From positions 1-56,451 of the forward strand of contig WAKO01000009.1 of the NCBI GenBank assembly GCA_015523325.1: a stretch of 56,451 nt of DNA, in the 5' to 3' direction. Each line of letters opens with the position of its first letter. Position 1 is the first letter of the stretch. The notes below the pieces were generated by a model. That model worked only from the letters and a program-made list of their open reading frames with translations. It made no database searches and was not told where the DNA came from. A program made the position numbers and the translations under genes. The DNA comes from Candidatus Micrarchaeota archaeon (GTDB taxonomy: Archaea; Micrarchaeota; Micrarchaeia; Anstonellales; J096). Positions 38,659 through 46,197 of the stretch are shown here, one piece after another.

Positions 38659-38674
38659 TGTAACCATAGTTACA
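38659..38674 (+). promoter_or_regulatory. 16-bp operator-like palindrome, copy A
   Basis: TGTAACCATAGTTACA (7 of 8 pairs match), 12 bp upstream of TTTAAAAACA; lies between divergent AK6 and the 1299-aa gene. Confidence 0.65.
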
Positions 38675-38719
38675 AAAAATGATATGTTTAAAAACACATC
38701 ATAACATTTATATAAAATA

Positions 38720-41700
38720 ATGTTTAACCACTATATAACAAAAAATACAACTCTATTTTTATTGATAATCTTCTTTTTAGCCAACACTGTTTATCCCTAT
38801 GAAATAAATTATTTGGAGATAGAAGAAAAACTCCCTCCATTTCCAAAAGATTTCGCACTCATTCAAAATCCTTCTGTTGTGGTTTATGAAGGAAATGAGC
38901 TTTACTTTAACCCTTCTTCAACAGCTCAAACAATAAATTCCTTAAAAGAAGTAGATTTTGGTTCAAGTAATTTTTATTCTACAAGAGCTTATGGAGCAAA
39001 TAATCAACATCAATATTATTTCAACCTAGCTCTTCAAAACTTTGAAAAATGTGAAGCTTTTTTCAGTGTAAATCAAAACTACGAGATGGAGTTTAGCCTT
39101 AACGAAAATTTAGACCAATCTACTCTAAAAACCCTCTACAATAGATATAGAAAGGAGCTTGAGTTATTTGGAATAAGGATAAATAGAGAAGTAACATATA
39201 TAGATCATGATGACCATACACATACTCAAGAGAGATATTATGTTATAAAAATAGATTCAACACTATCCTACAAGGATGCAGTAAACCCACTAACAAGAAC
39301 AGCAATAAGTGGTTTATTAACATTTGTTGAAACAATACCTACTTCCCTCTCATTTCTTCCAAGAACTCAAACACAAACAACAGTAGCTGAAAGTTGGAAC
39401 AACTGTGGAGAGTACAATGAAAACTATAAAAATGGGGTAGAATATTTAAGATCTTATTCTTCAATTCTACTGGGACAATTAAGAGAGGAGATTATAGCTC
39501 TAATGAATACTCATAAAGAACTAGATTATATAGGAGTATGTGATGAAAACTATACATGGAAAGGAAGTTCAATTTGTAGAAAAATTGAAGAAGAGCTATA
39601 CTCCATACAACAAGACCAATCCTTAACCTATAACAACATACTATTTAATATAGAAAAAGTAAACTTAGGAGAATTCAGTGGTTTCAACGGCCTTCTCTAC
39701 AACACCTCTGAATTAATAAAAAGAATAAAACCATTGAGAAAAGAAGCAAACCAAACACTATCTGAAATGACTGTTTATGTTGAGAACAGTGAAGTAACAA
39801 TTAATAATTATCTAGAAGATATAAGGGAATTAATAGAAGAACTAAGAAATGAAAAAATATATCTAATAGATGGATTCTATTCAAACCAAACCAACCCTGG
39901 AGAACTAAACATTAAAAACAAATTTTATGATCTAGAAAACAAACTATATTTACTGGAGGAAGAAGCAAGGGTAATTAAAAATCAAATAAATAACAGAGAA
40001 AGAGGTTGGCTAGCACAATCCTATTCAAGAAGCCAAGAGCTCATAAGTGAACTAATTCAAACAAAAGAAGAGGTTTTGAGTTTAAGGAGTACTTCAATAT
40101 CTACAGTAGAAAAATTCAGAGAGATTGTATTAAACTTAATAGAAAAATTAGAAGGAGAAGGAATTGATCTAAGTGGAGAAAGAGAGTTAATAACAAAAGG
40201 AGATAATGCAAAAGATTTGGGAACAAAATTCACTTACTATAGAGAGGCATTAAGCAGTATTCTTTATATTACTCAATTTGAAGGGAACACCTTAATCCAA
40301 ATGTATGAAGAACTAAAAGAGTCATTACCTTCTTTAATAGAGAGAGCCAAAATAGATCAAATAGATGTATCTTCAGAAGAAGCGCAACTCTCTTACTACC
40401 TTTCTTTAAATAATAAAAGCTTAGCCGTAAAAGGAATGATAGAGATAAGAGATAGTATAATAACTAAAGCAACATTACAGTACGGTGATTTAGGATTATT
40501 GAGAAAAAAACTTTACTCTTACTTGGATAAAAACCTTCCAATTACTTCAGAAATAAAAGCAGAACTTATGGAAAAAGAGAATGGAGTTGTATTTAACGGA
40601 AGGATAGATTTTGAAAGAGGAATAGGAAAACTAAGAGAACTTTACCTGTTTTACATTAATTCTATTTCAGAAATAGAAAACACCCTTCCTGAAGTGTTAG
40701 AAAATACCCTTGAAGTTGAATCCTATTTCAACATTCCCTATTATGAAGAGGAAGAAACAGAAATAAATGGGTATATTTCTATATTCAATCCTTCTACTTT
40801 TGAGGTAGAGGGAACAGTAGAAACCTATTCACCAATAAAACCTAATTCTCCAGAGGTTGTTGCTTATAATAATTGTATTGCTACTTTAAGGGTAAAAGTT
40901 GGACCTTATGAAACAAAGGTAATAAACGTAAATGAAGTAATAACTCCTATAAGAATAACAAATACAAATATAGAAGTAACGGGCAAAGATGGAACAACAT
41001 ATATAAAGAAGGAGTTATTGATAGAAACAAGAGTATGTGGAAACAGAATAAAACTTGATGATGACTACGATAAAGTTTCAAGTAACGAATTCAGAGTTGA
41101 GGGAAGTTATCTAGTAGGGGAATTCAGTCCTGGATTTTATTACGCAAAAGTTGAGAAACAAGAAGAAAATGGATATAGCATAAAAGTTACCTCAAGAAGC
41201 CTGGAAAAAACAGAAGAGGGAATATTTGAGAAAATAGAGTATGAGATAAATACAAACAGAAAACACGATTACATAGATATTGAAGGAAGATTTTCAAAAG
41301 CAGAAACAACAAAAGAATTCAAACTATTCACAGATAAAATAAGAATTTATGATGTTGTTGGAACAGAGAAAGTAATTCTCTTCAGAAAAATAAGTAGTGA
41401 AGAAAGTGAGATAATCAGGTTAGAACAACTACTTAGGCTAAATAACCTAACACAAGAAGAAGAAATAGAACTAGAAACTATACTAAACATAGAAAATCCA
41501 GAAGAAAAATTAGAACAATTATTAGAGTTGTATGGAAAAGTTGAAGAGAGAATTGAAGGAAAGGAGAAAGAAGAATATCTTGAAGAAAAAATAAGATCCA
41601 ATGTTGAAAAAGAAATAGAATTAGTTAGAAAAGGGATAGTATGTGCTCAAAACAACAACATACCTTATTTAGAAGAAAGCTATAGAGAGAGGTTAAATTT

Positions 41701-42619
41701 CCTAGAACAAAAAATATCAACAATTAACAACAGTGATGAAAAAATACTAAAAGAAATAGAAAAGGAATTAAATAAAGAAAGAAATTGGTTAGAAAAAACA
41801 CATAAGAGACTAGTTTCAGATGCGATAAAAGATTTTACAAAATCATATAAAGGATATGTCAAACTCAACATTCCAAACACAAACATTTCCTCTTTATCCG
41901 AAAAATTTGAATATTATATAGCAAGATATAACTCAAACCCGAAAGATCCTGAGAATGTATGTAATATAATAAAAATAAAAGACAGCATATCCTCTAAAGT
42001 TTCATTTCTAAGCATAAACATAAAAGAAGAAAAAACAAAGAAAATAAAGGAACTTGGAAAAGAAGCACAAAACCTAACCAAAGAAGTAACTCTTTTCATT
42101 TCAAAAGGAGAAAAGATACTTGGAAAAGAAACATTAAATAGAGTAGAACAAATAAAGAAGAGATTGGACAAGATAAATAAAGAACTTTCAAAAGGAGAAA
42201 AAGCAAACTTAAATTATGTGGAAAATGAAATTGAGACACTAAAATATGAAGCTGATCTATATAAGAGGGACTTAGAAAATCTAGCGGTAAAAACACTTAA
42301 TCAAGCAAAAACATATTTTGAGAGTATAAAAGATAAGATAAGAGAAGAAGATAGAAAAGCACTAGAAAATGCCTTATTAGAAGCAGAGGAAAAACTAGAA
42401 AACAATGAGTTTTTAGATGCAATAAGGTTAAGTAAAAATGTCAACAACTATAAACCTCCAAAACAAGAAGAATTACCATTAAAAGAAATGGCTCTTTTAG
42501 GAGTAATAATAGTATTAATAGTTGCCCTTTACTTGAAAGAATCTAAAAAGAAGAAGAATGAGAAAAAAGAGAGAAAAATAAAATTAAAGAGAATAACAGA
42601 CAGTGAAGAAACAGAATAA
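38720..42619 (+). CDS. Giant membrane-anchored surface protein (1299 aa)
   Basis: Signal peptide (TLFLLIIFFLANTVYP), helical/coiled-coil regions flanking a beta-rich middle, C-terminal TM (MALLGVIIVLIVALYL) and basic tail. Confidence 0.8.
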   Translation: MFNHYITKNTTLFLLIIFFLANTVYPYEINYLEIEEKLPPFPKDFALIQNPSVVVYEGNELYFNPSSTAQTINSLKEVDFGSSNFYSTRAYGANNQHQYYFNLALQNFEKCEAFFSVNQNYEMEFSLNENLDQSTLKTLYNRYRKELELFGIRINREVTYIDHDDHTHTQERYYVIKIDSTLSYKDAVNPLTRTAISGLLTFVETIPTSLSFLPRTQTQTTVAESWNNCGEYNENYKNGVEYLRSYSSILLGQLREEIIALMNTHKELDYIGVCDENYTWKGSSICRKIEEELYSIQQDQSLTYNNILFNIEKVNLGEFSGFNGLLYNTSELIKRIKPLRKEANQTLSEMTVYVENSEVTINNYLEDIRELIEELRNEKIYLIDGFYSNQTNPGELNIKNKFYDLENKLYLLEEEARVIKNQINNRERGWLAQSYSRSQELISELIQTKEEVLSLRSTSISTVEKFREIVLNLIEKLEGEGIDLSGERELITKGDNAKDLGTKFTYYREALSSILYITQFEGNTLIQMYEELKESLPSLIERAKIDQIDVSSEEAQLSYYLSLNNKSLAVKGMIEIRDSIITKATLQYGDLGLLRKKLYSYLDKNLPITSEIKAELMEKENGVVFNGRIDFERGIGKLRELYLFYINSISEIENTLPEVLENTLEVESYFNIPYYEEEETEINGYISIFNPSTFEVEGTVETYSPIKPNSPEVVAYNNCIATLRVKVGPYETKVINVNEVITPIRITNTNIEVTGKDGTTYIKKELLIETRVCGNRIKLDDDYDKVSSNEFRVEGSYLVGEFSPGFYYAKVEKQEENGYSIKVTSRSLEKTEEGIFEKIEYEINTNRKHDYIDIEGRFSKAETTKEFKLFTDKIRIYDVVGTEKVILFRKISSEESEIIRLEQLLRLNNLTQEEEIELETILNIENPEEKLEQLLELYGKVEERIEGKEKEEYLEEKIRSNVEKEIELVRKGIVCAQNNNIPYLEESYRERLNFLEQKISTINNSDEKILKEIEKELNKERNWLEKTHKRLVSDAIKDFTKSYKGYVKLNIPNTNISSLSEKFEYYIARYNSNPKDPENVCNIIKIKDSISSKVSFLSINIKEEKTKKIKELGKEAQNLTKEVTLFISKGEKILGKETLNRVEQIKKRLDKINKELSKGEKANLNYVENEIETLKYEADLYKRDLENLAVKTLNQAKTYFESIKDKIREEDRKALENALLEAEEKLENNEFLDAIRLSKNVNNYKPPKQEELPLKEMALLGVIIVLIVALYLKESKKKKNEKKERKIKLKRITDSEETE

Positions 42620-42650
42620 ACATTTTATTAAAAAAGAATTGAAAAATAAA

Positions 42651-44144
42651 TTAGTAAAAATCTGTTATTTTATATTGGCCTTTTTTATTTTTAGAGATAT
42701 CAATAACATCTTTTGAGTAAGAAATTTTTGTTTCTTTATTTTTTGGTTTTTCCAAACTTAATGCCTTAAGTTGTTTTTTCATTAATTTTTCTTTTTTTAC
42801 AGCAGCCCTATAGAAAGCTATTTCCAAAGTTGAAGAGGTTATTATATAATATACTTCTCCTTCTCTAAATCTACCAGTTCTTCCTTTCCTTTGAATAGAT
42901 CTTATCTCACTAGGAACTACATCAAAGAAAATAACTACATCAACATAAGGAATATCAATACCCTCTTCTCCAACACTAGAGGAAAGTAAAACACCTCCCT
43001 TCTCTCTAAACTCATTCAAAACCTCTTCTTGTTTCTTTTTTGTGAATCCTTTTCTCTTTCCAACAAACTTAAAAACAGTAAAACCACTATCCTTCAAAAA
43101 ATTATATGCTCTTTCAATACTATCTACATACTGGAAAAAAACAATTACCTTCTTGTTCTTATTCCTTAACAACAACTCTTTAAGTTTAAAGAACTTAGGA
43201 TGTAATTTTTCTTTGTTTTTATTTGCTATTTCCAAAACTTCCCTGAATAGAGAAGAACTAAATAAATAATTAACTGCTTTGCTTTTCTTTTTTTTAATCT
43301 TTTCAACATAAGATAGAAAATAACCAAAACCTTGGGTTTCCAAAATTTCCTTCATAAAAGTAAGCATGAAAAGAATAGAGTAGTGAGAACTAGCTTGATA
43401 AGAAAGATTTCCTAAATTTTTTATTTTATCAAAAAAAGATATAAGCTCTTTTTTATTAAGGCTTATTTTAAACCCTCTCTCTTTAAACCAATCTCTTTCT
43501 TTTTTAATCAATCTAGATATAAGGTCAATAACTTTCCTTAATTCTTCATCTAGTTCTACAAAAAACCATTTATTATTTTTAGTAAAAACAAATTCCTTAA
43601 TGTCTTCTTCATTACCTGTTCTTATCTCAACATTCTCTATCCTCAAATTTTTAATTACTTCATTTATTTTCTCTTTACTTCCTCCTGGAGAGGCTGTTAA
43701 ACCTATTACTAAACCTTCTCTATTTAACTCAAAAAACTTATTAGAAAGAATAACATAAGAATACTCTCCAACAGCCCTATGAGCTTCATCAAAAATAAAA
43801 ACAGGAAGTTTAAACAAATCAGAAAAAAAATCAATGTTTTTCTCTATTGTTTGAGGAGTAGCAAAAATAAACTTGGCTTTTTTGTAATAACCCCTATCCT
43901 TCACCTCTCCTGTTAGTAAAAAAGTTTTTTCTTTTAAAGAAGGGTACAACTTAATGAAATTTTTATAGTGCTGAGTTACTAATGGCTTGGTAGGAGCTAA
44001 AAAAGCACCCCCTCCTTTTTTAACCAAAACAACAAACCCTATAATAGTCTTTCCAGTTCCTGTAGGAAGAACAACCAATGTATTGCCATGATCTAAGATA
44101 CTTTTTATTATATTTTTTTGATAATCCCTCAACTCTATATTCAT
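42651..44144 (-). CDS. hef: Hef/FANCM-like SF2 helicase lacking the ERCC4 nuclease domain
   Basis: ELRDYQ, LPTGTGKT, LAPTKPLVTQH, DEAH, GLTASPG, EEGIDIP, IQRKGRTGR. Likely start MNIEL at 44144 (track starts at 44165). Confidence 0.88.
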   Translation of the reverse strand: MNIELRDYQKNIIKSILDHGNTLVVLPTGTGKTIIGFVVLVKKGGGAFLAPTKPLVTQHYKNFIKLYPSLKEKTFLLTGEVKDRGYYKKAKFIFATPQTIEKNIDFFSDLFKLPVFIFDEAHRAVGEYSYVILSNKFFELNREGLVIGLTASPGGSKEKINEVIKNLRIENVEIRTGNEEDIKEFVFTKNNKWFFVELDEELRKVIDLISRLIKKERDWFKERGFKISLNKKELISFFDKIKNLGNLSYQASSHYSILFMLTFMKEILETQGFGYFLSYVEKIKKKKSKAVNYLFSSSLFREVLEIANKNKEKLHPKFFKLKELLLRNKNKKVIVFFQYVDSIERAYNFLKDSGFTVFKFVGKRKGFTKKKQEEVLNEFREKGGVLLSSSVGEEGIDIPYVDVVIFFDVVPSEIRSIQRKGRTGRFREGEVYYIITSSTLEIAFYRAAVKKEKLMKKQLKALSLEKPKNKETKISYSKDVIDISKNKKGQYKITDFY

Positions 44145-44211
44145 ACCCTCTCCCTGTAGTTCCACTATTTCTAGGTTGAACCCAATTGTTTTTAAAAGGA
44201 ATTTAATATTA

Positions 44212-44227
44212 TGTAACTATGGTTACA
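44212..44227 (-). promoter_or_regulatory. 16-bp operator-like palindrome, copy B (inverted)
   Basis: Plus strand TGTAACTATGGTTACA is the exact reverse complement of copy A. On the minus strand it lies 15 bp upstream of TTTAAAAACA. It overlaps the ATG at 44219. Confidence 0.65.
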
Positions 44228-44476
44228 CTATATATCTATGACATCTCAGCTAAAGATAAAAAGAGATTCAACAAAATAAAGAGAAACTTTTATTATCATT
44301 TAAACAAGATTTTAGAAAACATAGAAGGGAATGATGTTTATTTAATTTCAAAGTCTGTGTTGGTTGTTGAAAATAAATTTCTAGAAAATAGTTTTGATTT
44401 ATTATTTAGAAAGTTTATCAAAGATGTTAAATGCTTTAAAGTAGATGTTAATAACATTGAACAGATTTCCATGTAA
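44219..44476 (+). CDS. Stand-alone Cas2/VapD-like small protein
   Basis: LYIYDIS first strand with the conserved Asp, basic helix KKRFNKIKR, xKSV strand turn; 85 aa with a ferredoxin-like pattern. No cas1 or array in the window. Confidence 0.6.
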   Translation: MVTLYIYDISAKDKKRFNKIKRNFYYHLNKILENIEGNDVYLISKSVLVVENKFLENSFDLLFRKFIKDVKCFKVDVNNIEQISM

Positions 44477-44574
44477 GCTCAAATACATGTAATATACTTG
44501 AACAAAGATAATAAAAACAAAACAATGAAAAGAACTAAAAGAATGACCTAATCTTACCAACAATTACTTAACAT

Positions 44575-46197
44575 CTACCAATAGCGGAATTCTAGGGGGA
44601 GGGTTATTTCACAAAAAACCATTGGTAAATAAACTTTAAAGTATTCATTCACTTTTGGGTGTATCTCTCCTACAACAGCAGAAACCTCCTTTTCTTTATT
44701 TTTTTCTGAATTATTTATTTTGAAGACTATTTTATAAGCTCTACCTTCTATAAATATTTTTAGATATTCTTCTTTCTCCTTTCTTTTATCTTTAGCTAGA
44801 AATGTAACACTAACAATCTCCCATCCCATTTCCTCACTAATTCTCTTTAAGACTTCAAAACCCTCTTTCAAATTAACTTCTTTATTTGCTATTACAAATC
44901 CTATTTTTGTTCTTTCCTCTTTTTCTAAAACCTTTCCAATTTCAAAGAACTTTAATGGCAATCTCTCTTTTTTATTTTCTTGAATATTTTTAATTAAACC
45001 AAAAACTAAACTAGGTCTTATTGAATTGTGTTCTTCTGAAACAGCTTTCTCTATTTTAAGCTTTTCTTTAAACCCTATTTTTTCTATATCTTTTCTTGAG
45101 ATTAAGTAGAAGTTATAAGCCTCATAAAAACCCATGTTTGAGAAAATACTTTTTATTATTTCTATCTCTTCATTTAGCTCTCCTTCTTGATAAAGATTTA
45201 GCTCTCCTTCTTTTATATTTTCATACCCATAAGCTATAGCTAAATCTTCAGCAATATCTGTAAAATCAAAAAAATCTACTCTGTAAGGAGGAATCAACAC
45301 TTCTCCTTTTTCTAAAAACAACCCCATTTTTCTCAATAACTTTGAGGTGTTTTTTATCTCAAACCCTAACAATTTCTCTATCTTTTCTTTTTCAAATTTT
45401 AATTTTTCATACTTATAATTTAGACTTAAATTTCCTGTACTCTTTTCAATCAAAGGATAAGCTTTTCCCCCTCTATCAATTAATTCTGTTATTATTATGT
45501 TTGCTATTTTTTCTACACTTTCTTTATGAGTTCCAGTTACATCTATTAGGAAGTTCTCGGTTTTTTCAGTTATTTTTGTTCTTTCGCTATTTATTATTGG
45601 AGGAAAAGATATAACCCCCTTTTTATCATAAAGCATTGGATACTTTCTAGGTTTTACTAAATGCTTATATTCAATTCCTTTTTCATGTTTCTCAAGTATT
45701 TCACCAACACTCATCTTTTCTTCTTTTTCAAGGGGTATGAATTTTTCTTCATTTACTTCTTTATAGGTTATTGGCAACTCGATTTTATCAAAGTCGTGAA
45801 CTCCTATTGCTACTTTTTTCCTGTTCCTTCCTATTGTTGAATGAAGTTTCTCTTGAAGATCAATTAAACTTTCTAATAAGTATTCCTTTTCCTTTACTCC
45901 TTTAATCACACATAAGTTTATGAATGGTCTTGTTTCTACCTTCTCTAGTGTGAATTCCCCACAAGGATTTTCAATAGAATAGATCTTAGGTTCTTTTTTT
46001 TCTTTATAATTAATGATAGCTCTTTCAATCCCCTTCCATCCCAATAAATCAGGCCTGTTTGGAGTTATCTCTATATAAAAATTTTCTTCTTCAACTTCTG
46101 TAGGAAATCCCATTTTGTTTAGCGTTTCAATTATTTCTAATTCGTTTAATGAAGTCTTTTTTTTCAAATAAATTATAGGTATTTCTATAACTGCCAT
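44575..46197 (-). CDS. pheT: Phenylalanine--tRNA ligase beta subunit
   Basis: EITPNRPDLL, LIDLQEKLHSTIGRNRKKVAIGVHD, SFPPIINS, PPYRVDF...DIAEDLAIAYGY. Confidence 0.95.
   Translation of the reverse strand: MAVIEIPIIYLKKKTSLNELEIIETLNKMGFPTEVEEENFYIEITPNRPDLLGWKGIERAIINYKEKKEPKIYSIENPCGEFTLEKVETRPFINLCVIKGVKEKEYLLESLIDLQEKLHSTIGRNRKKVAIGVHDFDKIELPITYKEVNEEKFIPLEKEEKMSVGEILEKHEKGIEYKHLVKPRKYPMLYDKKGVISFPPIINSERTKITEKTENFLIDVTGTHKESVEKIANIIITELIDRGGKAYPLIEKSTGNLSLNYKYEKLKFEKEKIEKLLGFEIKNTSKLLRKMGLFLEKGEVLIPPYRVDFFDFTDIAEDLAIAYGYENIKEGELNLYQEGELNEEIEIIKSIFSNMGFYEAYNFYLISRKDIEKIGFKEKLKIEKAVSEEHNSIRPSLVFGLIKNIQENKKERLPLKFFEIGKVLEKEERTKIGFVIANKEVNLKEGFEVLKRISEEMGWEIVSVTFLAKDKRKEKEEYLKIFIEGRAYKIVFKINNSEKNKEKEVSAVVGEIHPKVNEYFKVYLPMVFCEITLPLEFRYW

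Follow-up and report, generated by a model that had tools for sequence, protein, structure and literature searches.

A conserved palindromic dyad at two predicted divergent promoters of an Anstonellales genome, the probable operator of a dimeric regulator

Two dyads flanking a 5.5-kb gene pair

The DNA analyzed here is a stretch of 56,451 nucleotides (the window), contig C9 of a 701-kb genome of the order Anstonellales, class Micrarchaeia (G000; 24 contigs, 86.6% complete, 33% GC), in which two copies of a 16-bp dyad lie at predicted divergent promoters, spaced 5553 bp apart. Copy A, TGTAAC-CATA-GTTACA (TGTAACCATAGTTACA, plus strand, 38659-38674), is intergenic. To its left lies a minus-strand gene encoding an AK6/Fap7-like P-loop nucleotide kinase (37940-38623; AAA_18 in Pfam and NCBIfam scans), with its ATG 35 nt from the dyad, and to its right a plus-strand gene encoding a giant protein of 1299 residues (38720-42619), whose predicted topology is that of a surface protein. 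Copy B, TGTAAC-TATG-GTTACA (44212-44227), is the exact reverse complement of copy A. It overlaps the start codon of a small plus-strand gene (44219-44476) and is divergent from the minus-strand hef gene encoding a Hef-type helicase (42651-44144). The small gene, which is single-copy and lineage-restricted, encodes a basic protein of 85 residues (isoelectric point, pI, 9.2) with a predicted Cas2/VapD-like, ferredoxin-like fold, and it adjoins the PheT gene (44575-46197, minus strand). The GC content falls to 0.27-0.30 at 38000-46000, compared to about 0.33 elsewhere in the window, and this GC-poor stretch covers both dyads with the genes between and beside them.

An earlier reading of this DNA, made from the sequence only, had reported both copies and, inward of each, the sequence TTTAAAAACA. 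Direct readout of the sequence found all four elements as described, with TTTAAAAACA following copy A after 12 nt (38687-38696) and copy B after 15 nt (44187-44196, minus strand). The ATG of the 85-residue protein (44219) falls in the center of copy B, and the minus strand of copy A reads ATG-GTT-ACA-TAA, again as had been noted. Each site is thus structured as a 6-4-6 palindrome, TGTAAC-YATR-GTTACA. The 16-mers at the two segment ends are exact inverted copies, each palindromic save for 2 central bases, and these 2 bases alone distinguish the pair from direct repeats; because the site is itself palindromic, the mirrored orientation of copies A and B is weak evidence of anything.

With up to three mismatches permitted, the window contains four strand matches to the dyad (two sites, each on both strands) compared to 0.41 expected, and none of 100 shuffles reached four. 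Within the 701-kb genome, copies A and B are the sole exact copies, and the next best match has three mismatches. Alignable sequence around copies A and B is confined to the dyad and the TATA-like box, by which a recent duplication or a pair of transposon ends was ruled out as the source of the copies. An RNA element was also rejected, as Rfam was empty at the sites and the dyad lies upstream of the predicted leaderless start in most relatives. No searchable paper was found to hold any of the four 16-mers.

Conservation of the dyad and its position at promoters

The dyad was then sought in 61 relatives and in a wider set of 201 genomes of the class, the reversed pattern being scanned alongside as a control. 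The pattern TGTAACN4GTTACA was present in 34 of the 61 relatives, at up to 15 copies per genome and almost always with YATR at its center, and the reversed pattern occurred zero or one time per genome. The exact motif TGTAACYATRGTTACA was found in 53 of the 201 genomes with up to 16 copies each, and its reversed control in none. In the wider set, the dyad was confined to the order of G000 and to families f15, f18, f19, f21, and f26, and the exact-motif scan found it absent from families f13, f14, f16, f17, and f20. A total of 103 distinct sites was gathered from the relatives, and 91 of these (88%) were intergenic by a crude gene call, compared to about 10% expected (p about 4e-77). Their centers were TATA in 41, CATG in 39, and CATA/TATG in 23. 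In many cases the palindrome reaches 18 bp, and 60% of half-sites have A at flank position -1. Some relatives carry variants altered on both arms, namely TGTATC..GATACA (G006, G028), TGAAC..GTTCA (G024), and TAATC..GATTA (G038). Both the 6-4-6 palindrome and these both-arm variants suit recognition by a homodimer.

Conservation of this kind decides against reading the two copies as a chance likeness of functionless AT-rich promoter segments. A genome of 33% GC, in which both sites lie in AT-rich intergenic DNA, would lend itself to such a likeness, but none of the 100 shuffles reached the observed count and the motif recurs in 53 of 201 genomes with a control of zero; since the motif is conserved across genomes, the chance reading is already refuted and we give it virtually no credence. 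The scan for further copies that the sequence-only reading had proposed was split in its outcome, as it revealed no third copy in G000 and strong conservation among the relatives. These considerations indicate that TGTAAC-YATR-GTTACA is probably the operator at which a dimeric regulator binds DNA sequence-specifically, a regulator shared by part of the Micrarchaeia including the Anstonellales.

The sites were found in two geometries relative to the neighboring genes. The first, class B, is that of the small gene, whose promoter was surveyed in roughly 50 relatives. In about 40 of these, the dyad or a variant with one or two mismatches lies 1-10 nt before the ATG or over it, and a TATA-like hexamer begins about 31 nt before the ATG, with about 6 nt between its end and the dyad downstream. 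A TATA-to-ATG distance of about 31 nt is that expected for a leaderless mRNA, and the region between TATA and start is the classical position of a repressor. Since the TATA-like hexamer ends upstream of the dyad and the ATG is at or after it, the dyad therefore fills the region between TATA and the predicted start. In the family of G000, the ATG is within the dyad, so that the right arm encodes the N-terminus MVT.

The second geometry, class A, is that of 54 other genes, at which the dyad is upstream of the TATA-like box wherever such a box was found. In the 30 of these genes with a TATA-like hexamer, the median gap between dyad and hexamer is 14.5 nt (interquartile range 9-22), and the median distance from the start of the hexamer to the ATG is 29 nt. 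Dyad-to-ATG distances are most frequent at 36-40 nt, being exactly 38 nt nine times, with a second peak at 43-62 nt. Sites of this type, among them those of genes for Hef, PCNA, Nre, purine-synthesis enzymes, an AK6-like kinase, and, in two genera, the giant protein, lie 7-22 nt upstream of TATA.

For the giant gene, copy A is a class A site, in the order dyad, 12 nt, TATA-like box TTTAAAAA (38687-38694, plus strand; a predicted promoter element), 25 nt, and ATG (38720). The dyad is present at the giant-gene promoter in three genomes of two genera (g1 and g3), and in G002 and G007 it lies 38 nt before the ATG. The 1299-residue protein has an N-terminal hydrophobic segment, a long coiled-coil-rich ectodomain, and a C-terminal transmembrane helix at about residues 1250-1272 followed by a basic tail. 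This topology, with its signal-like N-terminus, is of an archaeal surface or S-layer type; Pfam and NCBIfam scans gave no family for the protein. It is 22% identical to a 1302-residue protein of G007 whose gene also follows a dyad, and despite this low identity the two genes share the layout of dyad, TATA, and ATG.

Relative to the small gene, copy B is a class B site, the TATA-like box ending 14 nt upstream of it; relative to hef it is a class A site, 14-15 nt upstream of the same box. This box, TTTTTAAAA (44189-44197), lies between the two genes, and the same arrangement is found in relatives. Because TTTTTAAAA is symmetric and is separated by about 26 nt from the small-gene ATG on one side and from the conserved box AATAGTGGAA on the other, the sequence suggests that it serves as a shared bidirectional promoter of hef and the small gene. 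The AATAGTGGAA box (44160-44169, minus strand) lies from copy B toward hef, where transcription of hef is predicted to start, and is unique in its context within the genome. The likely start codon of hef is the ATG at 44144, preceded by GGGAGAGGG, and a separate gene call gave a product of 497 residues. The product matches NF010337 (Hef) with an E value of 1.9e-130 over profile positions 15-529 of 781, and the Pfam domains DEAD, ResIII, and Helicase_C. It is a helicase only, the XPF-type nuclease domain being missing. The helicase-only hef is always head-to-head with the Cas2-fold gene, which retains a nuclease-like invariant Asp.

In relatives, the conserved box has the form AWTAGTGGAA and was found at 28 loci (including L034, L046, L024, L029, L006, and L007) on the side of the dyad that faces hef, 26-45 nt away in 20 of the 28 and 26-86 nt away over all, and it is retained in G001 and G041 where hef is not adjacent. 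The box is followed by a G-run in some families and by a C-run in others. As AATAGTGGAA(N)GGGG it resembles half of an archaeal origin recognition box (ORB) with its G-string; a search for ORB-like origin repeats across the genome of G000 revealed no cluster. In genus g19 (L007 1591-1665; L006, L008, L009), a perfect dyad and the AATAGTGGAA box adjoin a tRNA gene and not the small gene, which is located elsewhere with a degenerate dyad (G041) or none (G031).

The gene families flanking the sites were tallied with Pfam over 95 genes. Hef-like helicases were the most frequent (9 of the 95), followed by PurF/GlmS amidotransferases (6), phosphoribosyltransferases (4), ThrRS (3-4), PurE (3), PurL/PurS (3), and Fe-hydrogenase-like proteins (3), with two genes each for Nre, PCNA, and AAA_18 kinases. 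A second AAA_18 gene of the AK6/ADK type is found 48 nt from a dyad in G042, and because an AK6-like kinase thus adjoins a dyad there as well, the AK6-like gene beside copy A is a plausible target. The link is not kept in genus g3, in which the left neighbor of copy A, divergent from it, is PCNA in G002, and a gene for a 327-residue protein intervenes between PCNA and the dyad in G007.

Taken with these positions, the reduced genome of G000 would keep a minimal regulon of two sites. Site B is on what would be the core promoter for the 85-residue protein. The dyad encloses the ATG, at which a leaderless transcript probably also begins; binding of a protein at this site would be expected to obstruct RNA polymerase and repress the small gene. 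The same site would also act from upstream of the shared TATA-like box for the divergent hef. Site A is upstream of the predicted giant-gene TATA with the same geometry, and its 35-nt distance from the ATG of the AK6-like kinase could bring that gene under it as well. Transcription is predicted to start at about 44219 for the small gene, at 38716-38720 for the giant gene, and at about 44168 for hef. Position-dependent archaeal regulators bound just upstream of the TFB recognition element (BRE) and TATA influence recruitment of TFB and TBP, usually as activators. A protein at either class A site would be expected to act in this manner. The signs of regulation given in the sequence-only reading, with the giant gene and hef activated and the Cas2-like gene repressed by a homodimer, fit this predicted geometry. 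That reading is retained for an operator at both divergent promoters, by conservation at orthologous promoters and by the fixed TATA and ATG spacing, and is loosened for AK6, whose part in it is not conserved in g3. It had staked itself on further copies or conservation of the site, and the conservation observed is strong.

Several observations weigh against the operator assignment. With two sites only, a regulon is not demonstrable within G000 itself. The TATA boxes were called as consensus matches in AT-rich DNA, and a hexamer fell within the expected window for only 30 of the 54 class A genes. The T-run before the AK6-like gene makes a poor TATA box. The sites also cluster near a replication strand-bias switch in the relatives G054 and G002, which leaves room for a role in chromosome biology. 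The proteins proposed below to bind the site are candidates.

As a second possibility, the sequence-only reading had proposed that the 5.5-kb segment with the giant gene and hef flips by recombination between the two copies, swapping promoters in a form of phase variation. Identical 16-bp inverted copies do flank the segment, and its inversion would break no open reading frame. The block of dyad, giant gene (plus), hef (minus), dyad, small gene (plus), and pheT (minus) is nonetheless kept in G002 and G007, which are of another genus in the same family, with dyad spacings of 5481 and 5520 bp compared to 5553 bp in G000, so that gene order and orientation are the same in three genomes of two genera. 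The copies in G002 and G007 are both TATA-centered perfect palindromes, and hence without orientation. Over 16 kb, a separate metagenome contig of 270 kb matches the window with 100% identity in the same orientation (an identical contig is in the assembly ERZ23495365 / SAMN12239301), and no inverted form was found in it or in G002 or G007. In the relatives, hef always adjoins the small gene with the conserved box between them, and the same 16-mer occurs up to 16 times per genome at promoters of unrelated genes, where recombination would scramble the genome. Pfam annotation revealed no recombinase among the neighboring genes, a genome-wide integrase scan not being part of that annotation. We accordingly consider the invertible cassette highly improbable and do not uphold it, which removes a speculative claim of phase variation on a surface protein for this window.

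Candidate proteins for binding the dyad

The 85-residue protein encoded at copy B was examined as a possible binder. Its AlphaFold2 model (predicted local distance difference test, pLDDT, 94.8) has the order beta-alpha-beta-beta-alpha-beta, and the best PDB matches returned by Foldseek were the Cas2 entries 5h1o, 6qxt, and 4es2 (at modest template modeling scores of 0.57-0.63, E about 4e-3), followed by ClcF and VapD. The likeness to Cas2 and VapD consists in the same predicted fold with an invariant Asp at the end of strand 1. Profile searches gave no Pfam, NCBIfam, or PDB sequence family for the protein, and the Cas2 profile PF09827 touched one of 17 family members, with an E value of 0.014. 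A HMMER scan of 1.84 billion representatives retrieved 82 relatives, nearly all of 75-105 residues, which is far from the spread expected of a profile that took in the large Cas2 family. By sequence profile, no link to Cas2 was seen. The small gene also differs from cas2 in that it is not beside cas1 or a CRISPR array and is present in genomes without cas1. Among the 61 relatives, cas1 is found in 18 compared to 49 with the small gene, and the cas1 of G000 is on another contig.

The small gene is single-copy in these 49 relatives and occurs in 78 of the 201 genomes of the class, and its orthologs encode single-copy proteins of 75-85 residues. Homologs are named "hypothetical protein" in Candidatus Micrarchaeota and Anstonellales records, and one relative is from a Candidatus Bilamarchaeaceae metagenome-assembled genome. 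The pI in the family is about 9-10, and the invariant residues are D8, K21, R22, F24, Y25, Y26, K45, and S46, of which K21 and R22 are on helix 1. Homologs P0037, P0038, P0042, and P0048 have Lys-rich, low-complexity N-terminal extensions of 25-120 residues. Such extensions are typical of nucleic-acid-binding proteins and could also be over-extended gene calls. The longer homologs contain no helix-turn-helix domain, only low-complexity basic tails.

Every dyad-bearing family carries the small gene, and the families without the gene have no dyad. In three dyad-bearing genomes the small gene was not detected; two of these are also without hef in the assembly, and the third has its hef start at base 81 of the contig. 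We read these three absences as assembly gaps from the sequences around them. By the usual logic of comparative regulon analysis, the 85-residue protein stands first among the named candidates for a dyad-binding protein that controls its own gene. In the full form of this proposal, the protein would recognize TGTAAC-YATR-GTTACA as a dimer, repress the leaderless promoter of its own gene, and regulate, from sites upstream of TATA, hef and the giant gene and, in larger genomes, purine synthesis, PCNA, and Nre genes. The geometry suits autoregulation, and the basic pI, the invariant K21 and R22, and the Lys-rich tails of some homologs are in keeping with binding to DNA. Co-occurrence of the gene with the dyad is, on the other hand, expected in any case, because the small gene is the most conserved target of the site. 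We know of no precedent for sequence-specific DNA recognition by a Cas2/ferredoxin fold, and an enzyme is suggested by the invariant Asp. The proposal in this form is therefore held as tentative and, on balance, unlikely; if true, it would represent a class of transcription factor built on the Cas2/ferredoxin fold, with its gene at a replichore boundary.

Palindromes of this type are usually recognized by winged-helix dimers, and the dyad could instead be the operator of a PadR-family or other winged-helix regulator rather than of the small Cas2-fold protein. Its half-site resembles that of the Bacillus subtilis PadR operator, CATGTAAAT/AGTTACATG (PMC5728393). In the padC operator of that bacterium, CATGTAAATAGTTACATG (PMC5728393), the half-site core ATGTAA / TTACAT is nearly identical to that of the dyad and is read by a PadR dimer. 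The spacing here is ATGT-N10-ACAT compared to ATGT-N8-ACAT, that is, 2 bp apart, with one extra base pair per half-site in the dyad. In genus g3, a 98-residue PadR-family gene ends within a dyad upstream of an nre-like gene, and yet the promoter of this PadR gene is itself without a dyad. PF03551 gave no match in G000, G016, G005, and G030 (assemblies 75-91% complete), all of which carry the dyad, exact or nearly so, at the small gene, so that no PadR gene was detected in the G000 assembly. The PadR family is also near-universal and does not track the phyletic pattern of the dyad. The spacing mismatch and the failure to detect PF03551 in four genomes disfavor PadR as the universal binder, and a winged-helix regulator of this or another family appears improbable as the reader of the dyad. 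The 98-residue PadR-family gene is at L035 2209-2505 (G002:C1 about 115.7-116.0 kb), with the same layout in G007 and G011; its TAA stop is inside the dyad, and the dyad is 23 nt upstream of the TATA-like box of the nre-like DNA-repair gene.

Chromosomal position of the sites and likeness to known systems

The clustering of dyads in the chromosome of some relatives raises another reading, in which they are sites of chromosome organisation (parS-, Ter-, or dif-like, or origin-associated) and not transcription operators. The main contig of G054, 1.03 Mb in length, has positive GC skew from about 900 kb round to 380 kb and negative skew from 380 to about 900 kb. The maximum of its cumulative skew is at 380,000 and the small-gene dyad at 380,279 (L157/L158), and four of the eight dyads on this contig are within 27 kb of the switch. 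G002 has a similar switch near the small gene (G002:C1 around 96-100 kb; L204/L205) with similar clustering, and a 16-bp palindrome of the TGT..ACA style resembles bacterial parS. Against this, the strict TATA and ATG spacing and the 88% intergenic placement at gene starts favor a promoter function, and the G054 dyads also occur far from the switch, at 118, 231, 463, and 622 kb. To our knowledge no ParB-like partner has been described for these archaea. A dif-like site was rejected, since the half-sites are inside-out relative to dif. We regard the chromosome-site reading as very unlikely, and prefer that of a promoter operator.

The skew itself is replication-linked and not coding-strand-linked in G054, because genes on the two strands agree in the sign of their third-codon-position skew. 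The 380-kb switch is sharp, and the opposite one, at about 900 kb, is more diffuse. Under the bacterial convention, the polarity of the skew at the small-gene locus is that of a terminus; the abruptness of the change suggests an origin, as does the nearby orc1/cdc6, which is 67 kb from the small-gene locus in G054 and 69 kb from it in G002.

The Micrarchaeota are uncultured, genome-reduced DPANN symbionts whose gene regulation is almost uncharted. In them, one strictly conserved predicted operator would tie together nucleotide supply, replication and repair (Hef, PCNA, Nre), and a major surface protein. The oldest copy of the dyad appears to be that at the orphan Cas2-fold gene, whose promoter coincides with a replication-linked switch in strand bias, and the protein binding it may be the central growth or replication regulator of the lineage. 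New for this window are the predicted two-site regulon, the conserved 5.5-kb gene pair flanked by dyads, the start codon of the small gene inside a dyad, and the negative outcome of the inversion test.

Among known systems, Hin/hix, FimB/E, and the shufflons likewise have short inverted repeats around a segment between promoters. The arrangement described here differs from these in having no neighboring recombinase and no alternative orientation in relatives or assemblies, and in repeats that are palindromic and, in relatives, many per genome. The PurR/pur box and the DnaA boxes, found at oriC and at promoters, offer a functional analogy only, that of one palindrome before purine and replication or repair genes, with one copy of the dyad likewise at a replichore boundary. 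There is no sequence or protein relationship to either, and the archaeal promoter architecture differs. The closest parallels in kind are TrmBL1/Tgr, with the Thermococcales glycolytic motif TATCAC-N5-GTGATA, and SurR (GTTn3AAC), which are likewise dimeric archaeal regulators with palindromic operators. For these, a site upstream of BRE/TATA activates and one between TATA and the start represses, and the regulon can be traced by comparative genomics. No link of the dyad to TrmB was found, no search having been aimed at one. The dyad differs from their sites in sequence, in its lineage, the Micrarchaeota, and in its predicted regulon of nucleotide supply, replication and repair, and a surface protein.

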